Assembly (NCBI GenBank): GCA_038064975.1
Contig: JBBTRX010000002.1
Location: forward strand, 64,880 to 128,879
Length of the DNA stretch: 64,000 nt
Reading direction: 5' to 3'
DNA from: Patescibacteria group bacterium
GTDB lineage: Bacteria; Patescibacteriota; Minisyncoccia; UBA6257; 1-14-0-10-40-38
How positions within the stretch are numbered: the first letter of the stretch is position 1; every line of letters begins with the position of its first letter. The notes under the pieces are model-generated. The model was given only the letters and a program-made list of their open reading frames with translations, made no database searches and was not told where the DNA came from. Below, in pieces: positions 5,245-59,857 of this stretch. The position numbers and the translations under genes were made by a program.

Positions 5245-5254
5245 TTTTTTATTC

Positions 5255-5380
5255 TGTCGGGGTGCCGGGAGATCTCACGTCGTCCGGCAATGCCGGACTC
5301 CTTGAAACCCAGCGGTTTCAACAACTTCCGCATCGGGAAAACTCCCGATTTTTCCGACCCCTTTCCCGTTCGATTTTCCG
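5255..5380 (-). repeat. tRNA-3'-end-associated structured repeat, copy A (subtype 2), downstream of tRNA-Pro
   Basis: It begins (plus strand) with 19 nt identical to the tRNA-Pro 3' end plus trailer (ttctgtcggggtgccggga). The conserved core runs GATCTCACGTCG...CCGACCCCTTTCCCGTTCGATT, and the far end carries an inverted T-loop copy. It is about 90% identical to copies C and G. Confidence 0.8.
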
Positions 5381-5440
5381 AAAAGGATTTTTATTATCAT
5401 ATCACGCCGCACACTGGATTAATGGCGATTATCTGTTCTG

Positions 5441-5511
5441 TCGGGGTGCCGGGAATCGAACCCGGCCTTTACGCACCCGAAGCGTACGTACTGCCGATAT
5501 ACTACACCCCG
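5441..5511 (-). tRNA. tRNA-Pro (anticodon CGG)
   Basis: Cloverleaf with the C1:G72 and A73 identity elements typical of bacterial tRNA-Pro. Anticodon loop TTCGGGT, T-loop TTCGATT. Confidence 0.85.
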
Positions 5512-5599: not shown

Positions 5600-7078
5600 T
5601 TACTTAACAAAATATTTCTTCTTGATCTCCTCATCGATGCGATGCTGCGCAGCGGATGCACTTTCTTTTGCCTTTCGTGCAAAATCCTCAAGCTCCTTAT
5701 CGGTCATCTTGCCCAATTCCTGAATTCTCTTTTCCAACACCTTTTTAGTATTGTATTTTGGATCTTCCAAAACTTCTTCCAAAAGCACCGCAAGAATTTT
5801 TCCAATCCGCGGTCCAGGAGACATCTTAAGGACGCGCATCACGTCTTCTCCATTCGCCTTCAACATCTTCGGGCTTACTGGATCTTTCTGTACTTTCTCA
5901 ATCATCGCGCGCAGATAGCGTAATCGATACGGTTGAGCCTTGGGCACACCGGATCCGATGCGATCCGCTTCGCGAAGTTTTAAAAGCGCATCTACATTGT
6001 CTTTACCAACACGCGCAATAAGCCGGCGTACACCCGCAAGAGTTACCGCTTCTGGATCGTATACAAACATATGCTCGCGCACTAAGAGAGCTACAGTCTC
6101 CGTAAGCGTTTTTGAGAAACGGAGGCGATCCATAATAGTTGCCGTCATCCGTTCGCCAACAACTTGATGTCCGTAAAAGGTAGAGTCCGGTCCATCCCCT
6201 TTTTTTGAACGCGGCTTTCCAACGTCATGAAAAAGTGACGCAAGGCGGATATGGAGCGGAAACCGTTCTGCTACCGCGTATTCCAATGATCGAAGATTAT
6301 GTTCAAAGACAGTATAGATATGATGCTTGTTTTGCGTTACGCTGATCCCCTCTTCAATTTCAGGAGCGATATGAATGAGAAGTTTGTGTGCGAGAAGCAT
6401 ACGCACACCCTCTGCAGCACGGTCGGTCAGCATGAGTTTTGTAAACTCATCGCGTATACGTTCCTTGGAAACATATGCCAAAAGCCCGCTCTGTTTTGTA
6501 ATCGCTTGTGCGGTCTTTTCTTCGATCGCAAATCCAAGCTGCGCACTAAACCGAATCGCCCGCAAAAGACGAAGAGCGTCTTCTTCAAATCGCTGCTCAG
6601 CCTTTCCTACGGCGCGAATAATTTTTTTCTTTAAATCTTCCTGTCCGTGATAAGGATCAACAATCAACTCTCTACTTGCATCGGTTATTTTTAATGCCAT
6701 CGCATTCACTGTAAAATCTCTGCGCGAGAGATCTTCTTCTATTGTAGAAGCGAAAGTTACCTCGTCTGGGTGACGCTTGTCACTATATTTCCCTTCAATA
6801 CGAAATGTCGTAACTTCAATTACTTTTAGTTTTGGATCTTCCGAATCCGTTTTTACTCCCACGGTGCCAAATTCATTTTCATATACTGAATCTGAGAATA
6901 ACTTTTGAATTTCTTCTGGCTTTGCATTCGTTGCGACGTCCCAGTCACTCGGACCTTCCGCAGGAGAATTCTCCATCATAATGTCCCGAACGCATCCGCC
7001 CACAAGATACGCATCAAAACCGCCCTCGTTTAAGCGTTCGGCGATCATTTTTACCTCTTTTGGGATGCGGCTTTTCAT
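5600..7078 (-). CDS. cca: CCA-adding tRNA nucleotidyltransferase with HD domain
   Basis: Pol-beta-like nucleotidyltransferase N-terminus (GGCVRD) plus a C-terminal HD domain (HDVGK). Confidence 0.8.
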   Translation of the reverse strand: MKSRIPKEVKMIAERLNEGGFDAYLVGGCVRDIMMENSPAEGPSDWDVATNAKPEEIQKLFSDSVYENEFGTVGVKTDSEDPKLKVIEVTTFRIEGKYSDKRHPDEVTFASTIEEDLSRRDFTVNAMALKITDASRELIVDPYHGQEDLKKKIIRAVGKAEQRFEEDALRLLRAIRFSAQLGFAIEEKTAQAITKQSGLLAYVSKERIRDEFTKLMLTDRAAEGVRMLLAHKLLIHIAPEIEEGISVTQNKHHIYTVFEHNLRSLEYAVAERFPLHIRLASLFHDVGKPRSKKGDGPDSTFYGHQVVGERMTATIMDRLRFSKTLTETVALLVREHMFVYDPEAVTLAGVRRLIARVGKDNVDALLKLREADRIGSGVPKAQPYRLRYLRAMIEKVQKDPVSPKMLKANGEDVMRVLKMSPGPRIGKILAVLLEEVLEDPKYNTKKVLEKRIQELGKMTDKELEDFARKAKESASAAQHRIDEEIKKKYFVK

Positions 7079-13951: not shown

Positions 13952-13976
13952 GATAAATTGTTTTGTTTTAAGAGTG

Positions 13977-14100
13977 TGCTCCCAAGGGGAGTCTCACGTC
14001 GCTTCACTCTTTAAAAACCGTCGGTTTTTAATATTTTCCTCCACGGGAGGAACCCGGCAGCTTTCCTCCCGACCCCTCCTTCGTTCGATTCTCTCTTGGG
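13977..14100 (-). repeat. tRNA-3'-end-associated structured repeat, copy B (subtype 1), downstream of tRNA-Glu
   Basis: It starts with a 14-nt copy of the tRNA-Glu 3' end (tgctcccaagggga). The subtype-1 core contains TTAAAAACCGTCGGTTTTTAA, CCTCCACGGGAGGA and CCTCCCGACCCCTCC. It ends in an inverted T-loop copy. Confidence 0.8.
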
Positions 14101-14170
14101 ATGATTTGCGTTCATATTATTATTCTAAACTGAAAACTCTTCAACTCATCAACGGTTCAACTGTGTTCGG

Positions 14171-14242
14171 TGCTCCCAAGGGGAATCGAACCCCTCTTTC
14201 AAGGATGAAAACCTTGTGTCCTGACCACTAGACGATGGGAGC
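14171..14242 (-). tRNA. tRNA-Glu (anticodon TTC)
   Basis: Sequence resembles E. coli tRNA-Glu (TCGTCTAG..GG.CAGGACAC). Anticodon loop TTTTCAT. Confidence 0.85.
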
Positions 14243-23350: not shown

Positions 23351-23437
23351 GGAGGCGTGGCTGAGCGGTCTAAAGCAACACACTGCTAATGTGTTGGCCG
23401 GGAAACCGGCCCGAAGGTTCGAATCCTTCCGCCTCCG
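23351..23437 (+). tRNA. tRNA-Ser (anticodon GCT), class II
   Basis: Acceptor GGAGGCG/CGCCTCC, anticodon loop CTGCTAA and a long variable arm GGCCGGGAAACCGGCCC. Confidence 0.85.
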
Positions 23438-23448
23438 CAGTAGCAAAA

Positions 23449-23482: not shown

Positions 23483-23599
23483 GTGAAGTGAATGATTCGA
23501 ACCGCGGGCCGCAGACTCCGAAGAGGAGTCGAAGGTTTCGAGATCAGCAGACCGAGAGGCGAATCCAATTCCTTGATCAAAATTTAAAAATCCAATTCT

Positions 23600-25720: not shown

Positions 25721-25910
25721 ATAAACCTCCTTTCAAGGTTCTAAAGAAAACAATACACCATTGCTTTAATAATCACAAAATTGACAATTACTTGTTAAAT
25801 CGCCTTAGGGCTTTTTTAGAATAAAAACGATAATTTTTATAAAATTTGAAATATAATTAACAGGCGAGCCTCGCCCAAAGCTGAACTATTTAAAATTAAT
25901 AAGGAAGCTT

Positions 25911-26032
25911 TGAGCGGGGTAGAGAGTCTCACATCGTCCGGCTCTGCCGGACTCTTTGAAACCCAGCGGTTTCAACAGCTTCCGCATCGGGGAAACTACC
26001 GATTTCCCCGACCCCCTTCCCGTTCGATTCTC
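25911..26032 (-). repeat. tRNA-3'-end-associated structured repeat, copy C (subtype 2), distal tandem copy at tRNA-Gly
   Basis: It starts with tgagcggggtagaga (a tRNA-Gly 3'-end mimic) and its core is about 90% identical to A and G. Confidence 0.8.
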
Positions 26033-26085
26033 TTCTTACTCATTCCAAATAAAATGACTCACTATCACGGTGAGTCATTTTACGT

Positions 26086-26246
26086 TGAGCGGGGTACGAG
26101 AGTCTCACGTCGTCCGGCTCTGCCGAACTCCTTAAAACCCATCGGTTTTAACTCGCTCACTTCGTTCGCTTTTCCGCCTCGGAGAAACTTCCGTTTCCCC
26201 GACCCTGCCTACCGGTAGGCAGGCCCCTTCCTGTTCGATTCTCTCT
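26086..26246 (-). repeat. tRNA-3'-end-associated structured repeat, copy D (divergent subtype 2 with palindromic insert), proximal copy at tRNA-Gly
   Basis: It starts with tgagcggggtacgaga, which is 16/16 identical to the tRNA-Gly 3' end. It shares the core 5' part with subtype 2. It shows the compensatory hairpin change TTGAAACC/GGTTTCAA to TTAAAACC/GGTTTTAA. It carries an extra 20-nt perfect palindrome CCTGCCTACCGGTAGGCAGG. Confidence 0.75.
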
Positions 26247-26300
26247 TTACTCATTCATAACAAAAACAACCCATCGCAAGAATGGACTGTTTTTGTTATG

Positions 26301-26371
26301 AGCGGGGTACGAGAATCGAACTCGCGGCTCGACCTTGGCAAGGTCGCGTATTACCACTATACTAACCCCGC
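26301..26371 (-). tRNA. tRNA-Gly (anticodon GCC)
   Basis: Close match to E. coli tRNA-Gly(GCC) through the anticodon arm (CGACCTTGCCAAGGTCG), with U73. Confidence 0.85.
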
Positions 26372-26587
26372 AAAATTACTTTATTTATTGTGGAGGAAGT
26401 CCTTGTGGACCTTTGACGTAAGGATCTCCCGTAGGACCAATGAAGCCGTTTGTATCGGTTGGTGCCGCAGACTCTTGAGGTCGGAATAACACTACCACTA
26501 GTAGCGCCCCCACGATGACAAGCGCAAGCACAATAACAATTGTCTTCATGTAAGTTATTTAACTATATTTGAGCTTCGAATGCAAAT

Positions 26588-26659: not shown

Positions 26660-27598
26660 TTAGCGTTGGTATGAGTGGTAGGTGTTGAGCAGTTTCTTTT
26701 CGGTCTGATTCAGTTCCAAGCCATTATCTTTGTAGAATTGGGCGATATAGAGGAAGAGACTCATCATCCCCTGGATTTTTGCCGACGAGACTTCGCCTTT
26801 TCTCATTGCCAGATTGAGAGCTCCCCGCACTCTCCGAAAATATGCGCGAGGGACGAAGATTCTACCATCTTCTGCAATCCCGATACCTGTTACGACAACA
26901 GGTCTTTTTGTAAGATCCACGCAATCAGATTTCCAGTGATTAATTATGAATCCGGCTTGGTCCGCAAGTATTCGTATCTTGCGACGCGTACTCGCCACAA
27001 TGGGATTTGGTGAAGAGAAGGTCAGGTCATCAATATAGCGCGTATACGTAATCCCAAATTCTTCACATAGATCACCAATATCTCCATCCAAGAGCGATCC
27101 CACCGAGAGATTGAAAAGATCTTGTGAGGCAGGACCGCCCGTGACCAATCCATGCTCCTTGTGAAAAAAATATTGAATGAGAAAAGCGACCAGCTCTTCT
27201 CTTTGCGACGCAAGCTTTTCATCAAGCGCAATCAACGTGTCGGCGACATGCGAGGGGAGAACGCTCCGATATGCATGGCGGAAATCAACAAGATAGAAAA
27301 ACCTATTCTCTCGATGTATGAGTGCATTATTGAGAGGAGATGATTTCGGCAATGCAGCAGTTGCATAGCGCAGAAATTGAGACCGTATCTGCTCATTGAC
27401 GTGCATAGGACTGCGCAAATGACCCAAAAATTCTCTTTGCAAATGAAGCATGCTGTTATTGGGCGCAAAAACGATACGACGCTTCGTGTGTCCGCTTAAA
27501 GGATTTTCATCGCGGATAGGAAACATCGTAAAACGAGGAGATTCCCCGTACTCGCGCTCCAATTGAGCCACGAGACTTTTCAGATTTTCAACGAGCAT
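26660..27598 (-). CDS. reverse transcriptase, retron-type (start trimmed to MLVENL; good SD AAGGAGG)
   Basis: RT motif 1/2 (FPIR..RRIVFAPNNSMLHLQ), motif A (LVDFRHAYRSV), motif B (LVTGGPASQDLFNL), motif C (YIDD), and a downstream VVVTGIGI that matches the retron-characteristic VTG motif. At 312 aa it has no maturase or endonuclease domain. Confidence 0.75.
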   Translation of the reverse strand: MLVENLKSLVAQLEREYGESPRFTMFPIRDENPLSGHTKRRIVFAPNNSMLHLQREFLGHLRSPMHVNEQIRSQFLRYATAALPKSSPLNNALIHRENRFFYLVDFRHAYRSVLPSHVADTLIALDEKLASQREELVAFLIQYFFHKEHGLVTGGPASQDLFNLSVGSLLDGDIGDLCEEFGITYTRYIDDLTFSSPNPIVASTRRKIRILADQAGFIINHWKSDCVDLTKRPVVVTGIGIAEDGRIFVPRAYFRRVRGALNLAMRKGEVSSAKIQGMMSLFLYIAQFYKDNGLELNQTEKKLLNTYHSYQR

Positions 27599-27655
27599 GG
27601 AAACCTCCTTGTTTTGTAGTTCTGGGGTTGGGTTTTGACTATAGTTCCTGAACTG

Positions 27656-27690
27656 AAGAAATGCAAATAAAAAAGGACCCCACAGAGATG
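27656..27690 (-). terminator. terminator-like hairpin plus T-tract between the candidate ncRNA and the RT start
   Basis: On the minus strand: GCCCCACAtctcTGTGGGGtcc followed by TTTTTTATTTGCATT. The T-tract is identical to the one after the RT gene. Confidence 0.5.
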
Positions 27691-27704
27691 TGGGGCGATC
27701 AGCG

Positions 27705-27960
27705 GTATCCGAAGGTGAGTTTTGCGACAGAAAAGTGAAATGTGCTGATCTAGTGGCCGGTCGTCCGCACTCCGCCCGCGCGCGCGGCCCGGAAAGGCTG
27801 GTTGTAAGGAAAACCCGTTGCCGGATTCTCATTCCGCTACGTGAGTAGCGAAGGGAACAGGAAAAGAAGTAGAGAGATTAACGAACTCTCCATCCGAGAG
27901 CTTTTGGTCAAGTGCTCCAGACTCGCTTTTCCATCTCCTCACCTTCGGATCGTTCCTGAC
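27705..27960 (-). ncRNA. candidate retron-like structured ncRNA (msr/msd-like) upstream of the RT
   Basis: A 13-bp terminal inverted repeat ATCCGAAGGTGAG/CTCACCTTCGGAT brackets about 215 nt. AGCGAG follows the 5' repeat. The region has GC-rich hairpins (CCGCGCGCGCGG, CGCTACtcacGTAGCG, CTCTCggatgGAGAG) and is driven by its own promoter. The function is unproven. Confidence 0.35.
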
Positions 27961-27998
27961 CTGTGTCAGGAACACTAGGCCGCTAACCCAGTGTGGAT

Positions 27999-28028
27999 AC
28001 TATATCATTTCAATATTTTATGAGTCAA
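27999..28028 (-). promoter_or_regulatory. sigma70-like promoter (TTGACT-18-TATAGT) driving the ncRNA/RT unit
   Basis: On the minus strand: TTGACT cataaaatattgaaatga TATAGT. It lies about 40 nt upstream of the 5' inverted repeat. Confidence 0.45.
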
Positions 28029-28039
28029 TTAGATATATA

Positions 28040-28075
28040 AAAAAGACCCGACGTTCAAAAACGTCGGGATAGTGG
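28040..28075 (-). terminator. rho-independent terminator (minus strand)
   Basis: Hairpin CCCGACGTTtttgAACGTCGGG followed on the minus strand by TCTTTTTTATATA. Confidence 0.5.
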
Positions 28076-28281
28076 CGTACCCGTCATGGTGGGAGAAATC
28101 ACGGAGCTCTACGACGGGAGCGAGCGATGAATTGGCGTCATCGCTGGTTGCAACACCTGCGACCTTGTCGCCTTGCGCTCTCCTCCTCCATACCATGACG
28201 AGTACGTGTGGAGTGTAATCAAATCATCGTCATTCCGCAAGTTATGCGAACTGGTCGATTCCTCTCTCGTAAAACACAAAA

Positions 28282-28319
28282 AAGAAAAACCGCCCATAGA
28301 GGACGGCCTTTTCTTTTTG
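28282..28319 (-). terminator. terminator immediately after tRNA-Arg(GCG)
   Basis: On the minus strand: hairpin CCGTCCtctatGGGCGG followed by TTTTTCTTTTTT. Confidence 0.5.
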
Positions 28320-28391
28320 TGCGCTCGAGAGGAATCGAACCTCTATTACGGGATCCGCAATCCCGTGTCCTATCCGTTGAACGACGAGCGC
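28320..28391 (-). tRNA. tRNA-Arg (anticodon GCG)
   Basis: Perfect acceptor GCGCTCG/CGAGCGC with A73, anticodon stem CGGGA/TCCCG, loop TTGCGGA and T-loop TTCGATT. The GCG anticodon is unusual for bacterial tRNA-Arg, so the call is uncertain. It could be a variant or a pseudogene. Confidence 0.65.
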
Positions 28392-46746: not shown

Positions 46747-47088
46747 GGGGATGCCGGGCTTCGATAAGGCATATTCTCTACAGATGGCATGCCGAGCCGC
46801 AATATCTCGTTAACCTGTTGCAAACTATAACTGCAAACCACAAAGTTGCAGCACCAGCATTTGCCTTTGCGTAAGTGCGTGGTGTCCCCTTCCATTAATG
46901 GAAGGGCATCGGTCCTGACGCTTCATAGGGATTAACCGGTGTTATATCTGATGCTCAAGATGCGCGAAGATTAGGATTCGTCGGCACGCATTCGAAAACC
47001 AAATGAATTCTTTGTTTCTTTTGAAACTAAGCATGTAGAAGTTTGTTCTGAACATCCTTAGATGTGGGTTCAACTCCCACCATCTCCA
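46747..47088 (+). ncRNA. ssrA: transfer-messenger RNA (tmRNA, ssrA)
   Basis: 5' GGGGATG pairs with 3' CATCTCC and includes a G3:U pair. There is a tRNA-like T-arm (GTGGGTTCAACTCCCAC). An internal tag ORF, with resume codon GCA, encodes ANHKVAAPAFAFA followed by a stop. The gene lies next to smpB. Confidence 0.8.
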
Positions 47089-47098
47089 CAAATAAAAA

Positions 47099-59603: not shown

Positions 59604-59726
59604 GTGCTCCCGGCAGGAGGTCTCACGTCGTCCGGCTCTGCCGGACTCTTTGAAACCCAGCGGTTTCAACAGCTTCCGCCTCGGGGAAACTTCCGTTTCC
59701 CCGACCCCTTTCCCGTTCGACTCCTG
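59604..59726 (-). repeat. tRNA-3'-end-associated structured repeat, copy G (subtype 2), proximal copy at tRNA-Arg(CCG)
   Basis: It starts gtgctcccggcagga. The core is about 90% identical to A and C. It folds into a closing stem GCAGGAG/CTCCTGC with three internal hairpins. Confidence 0.8.
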
Positions 59727-59737
59727 CTACAGGAAAA

Positions 59738-59782: not shown

Positions 59783-59857
59783 TGGTGCTCCCGGCAGGAA
59801 TCGAACCTGCACCACCTCCTTCGGAGGGAGGCGTTGTATCCATTCAACTACGAGAGC
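59783..59857 (-). tRNA. tRNA-Arg (anticodon CCG), CCA encoded
   Basis: Acceptor GCTCTCG/CGGGAGC, anticodon stem CCTCC/GGAGG, loop CTCCGAA and T-loop TTCGATT. Its 5' end overlaps the last 14 nt of the upstream ORF. Confidence 0.85.

Follow-up and report, generated by a model that had tools for sequence, protein, structure and literature searches.

Small structured repeats with target-derived ends beside tRNA, tmRNA and protein genes of Patescibacteria

Introduction

Phages, integrative and conjugative elements, and genomic islands that use attachment (att) sites and tyrosine integrases can enter tRNA and tmRNA genes between the T-loop and the 3' end; the element re-completes the gene with an end of its own, the displaced 3' end stays behind as a direct repeat, and elements can accrete in tandem at one tRNA. 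Here we describe a family of small non-coding repeats that resembles these elements on each of these points. It was first seen as two tandem copies beside a tRNA-Gly gene in a Patescibacteria group bacterium (assembly GCA_038064975.1, contig JBBTRX010000002.1, positions 64,880 to 128,879; this whole stretch of 64,000 nucleotides is called the window, and its own numbering is used below). As at larger islands, a direct repeat that begins in the T-loop and T-stem flanks the insert and the tRNA is intact. The family differs in that its copies are only ~130-200 bp long with no integrase or open reading frame (ORF), in that they hold an extra inverted copy of the target end (X') and a structure-constrained core, and in that many tRNAs per genome, as well as the ends of protein genes, are used.

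Two further systems resemble the family in their folded form. Integron attC sites and the forked attP(+) hairpin of CTX-phi are imperfect palindromes of ~60-150 nt, conserved in structure and not in sequence, whose folded strand recreates a duplex site. The ends of the family, (A/G)ATCGAAC and GTGAGAY or GTTCGAW, each depart by one mismatch from the attC consensus RYYYAAC/GTTRRRY. However, the stem of the family copies the target gene and is not a fixed core site, its loop is a conserved multi-helix core, and its copies adjoin tRNA genes rather than lying in cassette arrays. Retron non-coding RNAs (msr-msd) likewise place a1/a2-type inverted repeats around a structured RNA, and a retron-type reverse transcriptase (RT) is encoded in the window. 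In contrast to retrons, the family is dispersed, has no RT homologue in the 115 public loci listed and no long msd hairpin, and takes its terminal repeats from the neighbouring gene; the window RT does not lie downstream in the same operon but upstream of tRNA-Gly, with its own promoter and leader.

Miniature inverted-repeat transposable elements (MITEs) and the REP-, Correia- and RUP-type repeats are also short, multi-copy, intergenic, hairpin-forming and non-autonomous, with insertion polymorphism. MITEs share conserved terminal inverted repeats and make short target duplications of fixed length, whereas the termini of this family vary and match the neighbouring tRNA or gene, and its repeats range from 15 to >100 nt in a target-specific manner. 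The family is moreover conserved in its interior, with covariation, unlike any of these repeats. The terminal hairpins of single-stranded DNA (ssDNA) in adeno-associated virus, where a stem closes a junction of small hairpins, and the mirror-repeat purine tracts of H-DNA triplexes may offer a further likeness, such tracts flanking the hairpins of the family. Mini-hairpins of the GCGAAGC type are common to such replicons and to the family, although no Rep/HUH protein or replicon is associated with the latter. TIGR-Tas arrays, which reportedly consist of short dual-spacer units, do not fit the element.

Results

Two tandem copies at tRNA-Gly

The tRNA-Gly(GCC) gene and both repeats, copies C and D, lie on the minus strand, with the copies 3' of the tRNA. 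Starting from tRNA-Gly and reading along this strand, one meets hairpin T1, then copy D (26255-26086), hairpin T2 and copy C (26044-25911), and finally another hairpin (25877-25861). Bit scores are those of a covariance model, R1, unless stated otherwise; X denotes the segment from the tRNA T-loop to its 3' end, X' its reverse complement, DR2 the displaced copy of the gene end, P a helix and J a joiner.

26300-26371, minus strand: tRNA-Gly(GCC), the resident target gene (ARAGORN; Rfam tRNA model, 65.3 bits)
26299-26320, minus strand: segment X, T-loop to 3' end, within and at the end of tRNA-Gly
26256-26298, minus strand: hairpin T1 (TAACAAAAAC...GTTTTTGTTA), read from the sequence; apex of the quasi-palindrome X-T1-X'
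26086-26255, minus strand: copy D, whole (39.8 bits, E = 2e-7)
26233-26255, minus strand: X' of copy D, with GAGAATCGAAC, the reverse complement of tRNA-Gly positions 53-63
26108-26232, minus strand: core of copy D, comprising J1, P2 (26181-26200), P3 (26132-26151), P4 (26113-26127) and a closing CGACG
26204-26223, no strand: perfect 20-nt palindrome CCTGCCTACCGGTAGGCAGG of copy D, between J1 (GGGG) and GTCGG
26152-26171, minus strand: second 20-nt insert of copy D (AAGCGAACGAAGTGAGCGAG) in the J2/3 joiner, resembling P4 of other copies such as that of L007
26086-26107, minus strand: 3' end of copy D, a T-loop-like GTGAGAC and then DR2 TCTCGTACCCCGCTCA, which equals the 3' end of tRNA-Gly
26045-26085, minus strand: hairpin T2, between copies D and C, read from the sequence
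25911-26044, minus strand: copy C, with X' (26022-26044), core (25932-26023) and DR2 (25911-25925) (64.9 bits, E = 2e-13)
25861-25877, minus strand: terminator-like hairpin T3, after copy C, read from the sequence

The string TCTCGTACCCCGCTCA occurs both in copy D (26086-26101) and in tRNA-Gly itself (26299-26314), while DR2 of copy C equals the tRNA-Gly 3' end minus one deleted nucleotide. The outer part of X' in copy D (TGAG...) is a decayed complement of the tRNA-Gly acceptor end. A first-pass annotation, made from the sequence alone, had described two tandem copies here; both are present, but copy D runs 9 nt beyond the end it had been given. The annotation had also put an AT-rich, terminator-like hairpin after each copy. 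Such AT-flanked hairpins exist, but in the sense of the tRNA each copy is preceded by its own (T1 and T2), and T3 follows copy C. The correct strand, the tRNA-derived ends of each copy and the spread of the family across Patescibacteria had all escaped that annotation.

The covariance model matches only the tRNA-sense strand of copies C and D, with scores far beyond chance. An ORF on the plus strand (25910-26218) was judged spurious, as it runs antisense through both copies and their sequence is explained by the non-coding model on the opposite strand. A tRNA on the plus strand was rejected by inspection, since the GTTCGATTC motif there has no T-stem. Searching for strain-level presence or absence at this locus returned only contigs that are 100% identical to the window or broken inside copy C. 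Two Logan contigs from independent short-read assemblies of the same organism (L116 and L117; L plus a number labels a comparison locus or contig throughout) begin inside copy C, at GGTTTCAAAGAG....

A family in the window and in public genomes

Repeat finding and R1 together detect exactly seven copies in the window, each on the strand of the tRNA or tmRNA gene immediately upstream. Besides C and D these are:

5252-5384, minus strand: copy A, 3' of tRNA-Pro(CGG) (5440-5511); 68.3 bits; DR2 matches the tRNA-Pro 3' end
13976-14106, minus strand: copy B, 3' of tRNA-Glu (14169-14242); 63.8 bits
47128-47274, plus strand: copy T, 3' of tmRNA (46747-47089); 47.6 bits; X' has AGTTGAAC and DR2 is TCCCACCATCTCCAC
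59604-59733, minus strand: copy E1, 3' of tRNA-Arg(CCG) (59783-59857); 80.4 bits
59416-59564, minus strand: copy E2, in tandem after E1; 48.9 bits; DR2 matches the tRNA-Arg(CCG) 3' end

Five of the 12 tRNA and tmRNA genes in the window carry the element, and two more precede other bodies that start with a reverse-complement copy of the T-arm. An exact-pattern search of species-representative genomes gave at least 116 pattern matches at no fewer than 115 loci. Among the matches listed, 112 of the 116 are true copies by similarity to the family consensus, which fits the ~8 chance matches estimated, and nearly all loci are titled Patescibacteria, a group also known as the candidate phyla radiation (CPR). 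The lineages include Saccharibacteria, Parcubacteria/Paceibacteria, Moran-, Uhr-, Berkel-, Lipton-, Colwell- and Jorgensenbacteria, and others.

At gathering scores, Rfam 15 yields only tRNA and tmRNA matches in the window, and a permissive search (E <= 10) gave nothing relevant for 25850-26400 or for the best-scoring public copy (L090). Full-text searches of the literature on CPR/Patescibacteria turned up no description of the element, and no ORF lies inside the elements (130-200 nt). The family is a non-coding one of ~130-200 bases, widespread in Patescibacteria and specific to that group, and apparently undescribed as far as Rfam 15 and the literature searched show.

The ends of each copy derive from its neighbour

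The unit consists of X, a hairpin, X', the core and X again, and the tandem loci (tRNA-Gly and tRNA-Arg) repeat the unit hairpin-X'-core-X. X usually covers tRNA or tmRNA positions ~59-73 plus 1-8 nt of trailer, and X' is the reverse complement of the T-loop and T-stem. In all seven window copies, the 3' end reproduces the T-stem 3' strand, the acceptor 3' strand, the discriminator and the next base of the copy's own neighbour, and the 5' end is the reverse complement of the T-loop and T-stem of that same neighbour. Even the atypical T-loop of the tmRNA is reproduced by the copy linked to it (TTCAACT in the gene, AGTTGAAC in the copy).

This pattern extends to the public genomes, where 45 copies follow a tRNA with an exact copy of its 3' end of at least 10 nt, covering nearly all isoacceptor types among the matches listed. 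In 50 tRNA-linked copies, the identity of DR2 to the resident tRNA is 82-100% over positions 59-73 and ~75% at position 74, and lies at background beyond. Its acceptor part (positions 67-73) is 94-100% tRNA-identical, and its T-loop part is usually changed from TTC to TGA. Complementarity of X' is 85-96% across the T-loop, ~50% at positions 63-66 and at background (0.24-0.45) across the acceptor (67-73), although X' still reaches the tRNA end and trailer in several copies (L014, L025, L041, L067, L088 and L114). A continuous 12-bp acceptor-T minihelix up to the discriminator base is not formed, as the X' strand is at background identity over 67-73. In 49 of 53 tRNA-linked copies, X, the hairpin and X' fold together into a single long quasi-palindrome that has the spacer hairpin at its centre (median z-score -6.1).

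One group of copies departs from this arrangement. Seven copies, among the matches listed, abut the 5' end of a downstream tRNA and have no DR2, ending within 12 nt of its start; in L037 the model and tRNA coordinates adjoin directly. Roughly 14 others are nested in repeat-rich regions of Paceibacteria genomes.

Because DR2 runs into the genomic trailer and not into CCA, we rejected the possibility that it is a primer-binding site for mature tRNA. Most tRNA genes of the window (e.g., 26300-26371, 5440-5511 and 14169-14242) do not encode CCA, with only C or CA after the discriminator, and a gene for a CCA-adding enzyme (5600-7078) lies directly upstream of tRNA-Pro.

Empty sites and insertions at protein genes

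We compared the surroundings of copy A with 40 loci that carry orthologues of its neighbouring HD-domain gene (46-79% amino acid identity). The core is absent from all 40, and no copy occurs in the 172 kb of related DNA. In L122, L143, L148 and L150, tRNA-Pro(CGG) lies 4-35 nt from the HD gene with nothing inserted. These empty orthologous loci in relatives show the element to be an insertion, and the window junction after DR2 (CCCGACAGAATAAAAAAATG) resembles the native junction in L143 (CCCGACAGATTTAAAAAGATG). The comparison fits either the left or the right X as the original and either origin of the post-tRNA spacer, both of which regenerate the same junction; owing to the repeat, the left and right X cannot be told apart. 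The resident gene stays intact, and the element is patchy among relatives and occurs in tandem.

Similar insertions are seen at protein genes. Copies occur at duplicated 5' ends of the genes for EF-G (L035, L066), TypA (L005) and LepA (L043), where the break falls at the P-loop codons AHID|(A/H)GK of these GTPases, and at duplicated 3' ends of the genes for EF-G (L102), SecA (L074) and another protein (L092). Gene interior, gene end, spacer, X', core and gene-end copy always follow one another in this order, and the core points away from the gene interior; consequently, the core is antisense to the gene at 5' ends, which points to a DNA-level geometry. The direct repeats are ~15-22 nt at tRNAs, 55-70 nt at protein genes and ~100 nt in L074. 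In L102, the two 60-nt repeats differ by three changes, all of them synonymous (GGC AAG CGA vs GGG AAA CGG), which indicates that one repeat evolved as coding sequence in another lineage, as expected of a gene end borne by the element. In L074, the second unit stops 16 nt into the core, giving a circularly permuted arrangement of 1.6 units.

These insertions bear on a very improbable explanation, namely that the repeats are self-cleaving or self-ligating ribozymes, in which case read-through transcripts would release X-hairpin-X'-core as a small circle of RNA, in the manner of retrozymes and viroid-like RNAs. The tandem units and the permuted partial unit in L074 are consistent with this, as are the compact fold, whose 5' and 3' ends lie together with P1 formed from flanking sequence, and the X' of several copies that spans the tRNA end and trailer and could splint two RNA ends. 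However, no ribozyme family in Rfam 15 (hammerhead, twister, hatchet, pistol and HDV included), and no retron msr or tRNA-like RNA there, gives a match even at E <= 10, the second cleavage site would be missing at single-copy loci, and the outer part of X' has decayed in most copies.

The core is a conserved fold under selection

The core is a conserved multi-helix fold of 85-110 nt, built from helices P2 and P3, a P4 that varies, and joiners of purines mirroring the helices. We aligned 116 copies from the window and 99 of the listed public loci to R1 (alignment A3), using a hand-specified structure, as RNAalifold on raw MAFFT alignments gave poor registers. Standard pairs make up 96.4% of core cells, and compensatory double changes occur in 12 of 19 pairs (200 cells). 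None of 500 column shuffles reached the observed value of any of five measures, and the covariation score was 0.268 for the real structure compared to 0.03-0.08 when the 3' partner was slid by 1-3 columns. The first-pass annotation had argued from pair-preserving differences between the copies that their structure is under selection rather than the copies being decaying junk, a view that would fall if more copies showed no enrichment of substitutions at paired positions. In the 116 copies substitutions are enriched there, in agreement with that argument; the core fold is under clear selection and is not decaying junk.

The compensatory change on which the annotation had relied is likewise real: copy D has TTAAAACC/GGTTTTAA (26132-26151) where copy C has TTGAAACC/GGTTTCAA (25956-25975). 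The P3 pair that changes between the two is G-C in 42 copies, A-U in 38 and C-G in 20. This pair, the third of P3, also tracks a purine in J2/3, with A accompanying A-U and G accompanying G-C in 73 of 108 copies, an agreement reached in none of 5000 permutations; copy C has G with G-C and copy D has A with A-U. The change from TTGAAACC to TTAAAACC is therefore part of a three-way covariation. The annotated hairpin GGGGAAA(C)/(G)TTTC(C/T)CC also keeps its stem, with one G-T pair in copy D, while its loops differ (GGAA in D, TCGGTAG in C).

Mutual information in A3 brought out constraints beyond the helices. The J1 purine strand 5' of P2 mirrors the P2 5' strand about GTC over six positions (e.g., AAAGGG-GTC-GGGAAA, GGAGGG-GTC-GGGAGG and AAGGGG-GTC-GGGGAA); the three variable positions match in 83-94% of copies compared to 59-69% after permutation, with the observed value reached in none of 2000 permutations at each. 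A tertiary loop-to-junction pair joins the middle base of GG[Y]GG to the last base of the P3 loop (C-G in 52 copies, U-A in 17). Such mirror repeats suggest short intramolecular triplexes, purine-purine-pyrimidine on the sense strand and pyrimidine-purine-pyrimidine on the antisense strand. X' and X pair as P1, with a mean duplex energy of -18.8 kcal/mol compared to -13.2 for mismatched flanks (p = 2e-12), and mini-hairpins of the GCGAAGC type form on the tRNA-sense strand.

These statistics contradict the suggestion that the repeats are inert remnants, i.e., fragments of tRNA pseudogenes or att scars that prophages or genomic islands left on excision. The classic scar of integrase-mediated integration is a direct repeat of the tRNA 3' end that starts in the T-loop. 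Yet CPR lineages of phylum level share a conserved core that shows compensatory and triplet covariation, 57 tRNA-linked copies have no large element between their repeats, and the viral contigs of IMG/VR, where a phage origin might show, contain no match to the family. We give this explanation almost no credence.

The same structural evidence lends weight to a host function, which we regard as unlikely overall. The repeats could be a structured small RNA or cis-acting RNA of the host, that is co-transcribed with tRNA genes and set free by the enzymes that process tRNAs. RNase P, RNase Z or the CCA-adding enzyme would recognise the X'/X stem, whose 3' strand is tRNA-identical, as a tRNA-like handle; the RNase P cut would come from the real downstream tRNA in some copies, and spread among loci would be secondary. 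Covariation at the tertiary level is typical of functional RNAs, and 60 of 116 copies have P2 loops of the GNRA type. Selection has favoured a tandem G-A motif (TCGAAC/GTGAGA) over the true T-loop at the foot of P1. The tRNA-sense strand folds more stably in all four copies tested, and the P1 duplex is more stable on that strand in 80 copies compared to 30 for the other. The DR2 acceptor strand is kept despite its decayed X' partner, and the seven copies that end just before the next tRNA, including the direct abutment in L037, are also in line with processing. Against this, most copies have a hairpin with a T-run directly before them, and no consistent promoter was seen; the orthologous tRNA-Pro loci of relatives, and all 172 kb of related DNA, lack the core; the core is antisense to the gene at GTPase 5' ends; and the acceptor half of the proposed minihelix is unpaired in most copies. 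In addition, among ~2100 paired cells, G-U pairs (26) are nearly as rare as A-C mismatches (17), an uncommon pattern in an RNA family. Triplexes of the purine motif are classically associated with DNA. On the whole we lean slightly towards RNA, rather than folded ssDNA, as the functional molecule.

A retron-type RT beside the locus

The gene between tRNA-Arg(GCG) and tRNA-Gly encodes a retron-type RT:

26660-27832, minus strand: ORF as listed, over-extended by 78 codons, with the start at ~27598; retron-type RT (NCBIfam retron St85 RT, E = 1e-25; PADLOC RT_II-A, E = 4e-25)

By eye, the protein has YIDD, NAxxH-like and VTG motifs, which are typical of retron RTs. A sigma-70-like promoter (TTGACT-18-TATAGT, ~28028-27998) lies upstream, and the ~370-nt leader (27600-28030, minus strand) is probably an msr/msd region. 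A small ORF for a membrane peptide (26395-26550) follows the RT gene.

Homologues of the RT are found in CPR core operons, after rplT and between rplB and rpsS (L159:2533-4070, L161:2589-4017, L163:1817-4100). In L159 and L161 a direct repeat of 55-62 nt, matching the end of the neighbouring gene, flanks the insertion, and the differences between its two copies are mostly synonymous. This is the same signature of gene-end duplication as that of the small elements. L159 additionally has a displaced 3'-end fragment of a beta-CASP gene beside the repeat. In L163 (1826-2531), an opposite-strand ORF of 191 amino acids lies between direct and inverted 38-nt copies of a terminator hairpin (AAAATCGCCYYGGATGAAAATCCGGGGCGRTTT) and reads as another insertion bounded by a duplicated flanking structure.

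Such a neighbour raises the possibility that the repeats are retroelements akin to short interspersed nuclear elements, with X'-core-X as an RNA that resembles retron non-coding RNA (with a1/a2-like repeats) and is copied in trans by the RT; the cDNA, extended by fold-back to make X', would integrate at the ends of highly transcribed genes. The RT gene is indeed only 290 nt upstream of tRNA-Gly (26660-27598, minus strand), and its CPR homologues either have direct repeats of a gene end on both sides (L159, 55 nt from the 3' end of rplT; L161, 62 nt) or lie between rplB and rpsS (L163). The targets correspond to abundant RNAs (tRNAs, tmRNA, and the EF-G and SecA mRNAs), and the repeat at GTPase 5' ends stops ~9 nt upstream of the ATG, which could be run-off at the 5' end of a transcript. 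However, tblastn found no homologue of the window RT within ~4 kb of copies in the 115 public loci listed, and the RT family is rare (25 homologues at E <= 1e-10 in 5.8 billion proteins) while the core, by contrast, is very common. DR2 has genomic trailer nucleotides and not CCA, so mature tRNA cannot be the template, and sense RNAs alone cannot yield both orientation classes. We consider this origin improbable.

Other structured repeats

The palindrome of copy D, which the first-pass annotation had noted within that copy, is present as described at 26204-26223 and, as that annotation had not recognised, is a separate, recurrent insert. Palindromes of the CCTGCCTRCCGGYAGGCAGG type occur at 12 sites in 848 kb of CPR loci compared to 0.27 expected (~45 times chance). 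They form a family of 16-20 nt, CCTGCC(TR)CCGG(YA)GGCAGG, that occurs in unrelated CPR genomes, often inside other repeats (L031:2450, L034:5438, L059:2893 and 3178, L088:2571, L094:4479, L101:4202 and L113:1559). Their position differs among copies of the element, being in J2/3 in L094, inside DR2 in L101 and at a helix boundary in copy D. This recurrence at shifting positions indicates an independent mini-insert rather than a feature of the element.

Two other segments of the window also follow tRNA genes:

23484-23575, plus strand: shorter body (GCGGGCCGCAGACTCCGAAGAGGAGTC...), 3' of tRNA-Ser(GCT) (23351-23438), with the same architecture and an unrelated core
28040-28277, minus strand: structured-looking non-coding segment of ~240 nt, 3' of tRNA-Arg(GCG) (28319-28391), starting with the T-arm reverse complement CGAGAGAGGAATCGACC

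The tRNA-Ser body lies between a T-arm copy in reverse complement and a direct but degenerate copy of the T-loop and T-stem; similar GGGCGCG... bodies follow tRNAs in L031, L058, L006, L094, L020 and L008. The segment after tRNA-Arg(GCG) runs up to a strong terminator that closely precedes the retron promoter, and it matches neither R1 nor any Rfam family. In Paceibacteria, the core can be nested among dense short hairpin repeats (e.g., GTCCTCCCTTGGGGGAGGTG...CACCG, AAATTCCCCTCTTGAGGGGTG and GTAGGGGCGACCTTCTAGTCGCCTGT), as in L010, L012, L017, L032, L047, L051, L054, L059, L064, L070, L103, L111 and L113. This nesting suggests a wider ecosystem of miniature structured repeats in CPR genomes.

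Discussion

With confidence that is evenly balanced, we favour the interpretation that the repeats are small, non-coding, non-autonomous integrative elements of Patescibacteria whose folded single strand matters. Each element would carry its own copy of the target-gene end and enter by recombination within a conserved part of the target, i.e., the T-loop and T-stem of a tRNA or a conserved coding motif such as the P-loop codons of a protein gene. Insertion would re-complete the gene and leave the displaced end copy (DR2) behind, much as tRNA-targeting genomic islands do, though on a miniature scale and with no integrase gene. By analogy with attP(+) of CTX-phi or integron attC, the folded strand X'-core-X may present a stem identical to the duplex target, and this folded strand would be the functional part under selection. 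A circular or dumbbell intermediate of ~200 nt (X-hairpin-X'-core) would explain both the tandem arrays and the partial second unit in L074. X' itself may arise by fold-back template switching, in which the compact core brings the ends together and a polymerase finishing the core copies the adjacent flank.

Several observations weigh against this interpretation. No recombinase, transposase or other dedicated enzyme was identified, the neighbours being housekeeping genes, although no search for IntI was made; nor was a circular or excised form observed. The scheme leaves unexplained how a new target end (a new X and X') is acquired. The acceptor part of X' decays (identity ~0.3 at positions 67-73) while DR2 stays ~95% tRNA-identical, an asymmetry not predicted by a single duplication followed by neutral decay. 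The hairpin between X and X' is wholly different between copies, even between D and C, so that its origin, element-borne or native, is ambiguous. The seven copies that abut the 5' end of a downstream tRNA without DR2 do not fit the scheme, and a cellular RNA function could account just as well for covariation of such quality, with its GNRA-type loops and tertiary pair.

A bolder version of the favoured interpretation, which we put forward only tentatively and think somewhat doubtful, is that the family represents a new class of mobile element: a protein-less integrative mini-circle or dumbbell of ~200 nt whose folded strand mimics the end of an essential gene and directs its own insertion. The folded strand would be RNA or ssDNA with two mirror-repeat triplexes, and the host gene would never break, as a replacement copy of its end is carried along. 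Such an element might use host enzymes only, or might itself be catalytic or guide-like.

The genomes of CPR/Patescibacteria are ~1 Mb in size and are thought to hold little non-essential DNA. The family provides a testable system for how a non-coding sequence targets many essential genes without harm, and with it the orphan nucleic-acid folds of bacteria gain a highly structured motif whose triplet covariation is unusually clear. There are also practical consequences, as the repeats fragment CPR assemblies (L116 and L117 break inside copy C) and the extra fragments of tRNA 3' ends could mislead the annotation of tRNAs, att sites and genomic islands in metagenome-assembled CPR genomes. If it is true that the folded strand guides or catalyses integration, this would constitute a new mechanism of mobility.

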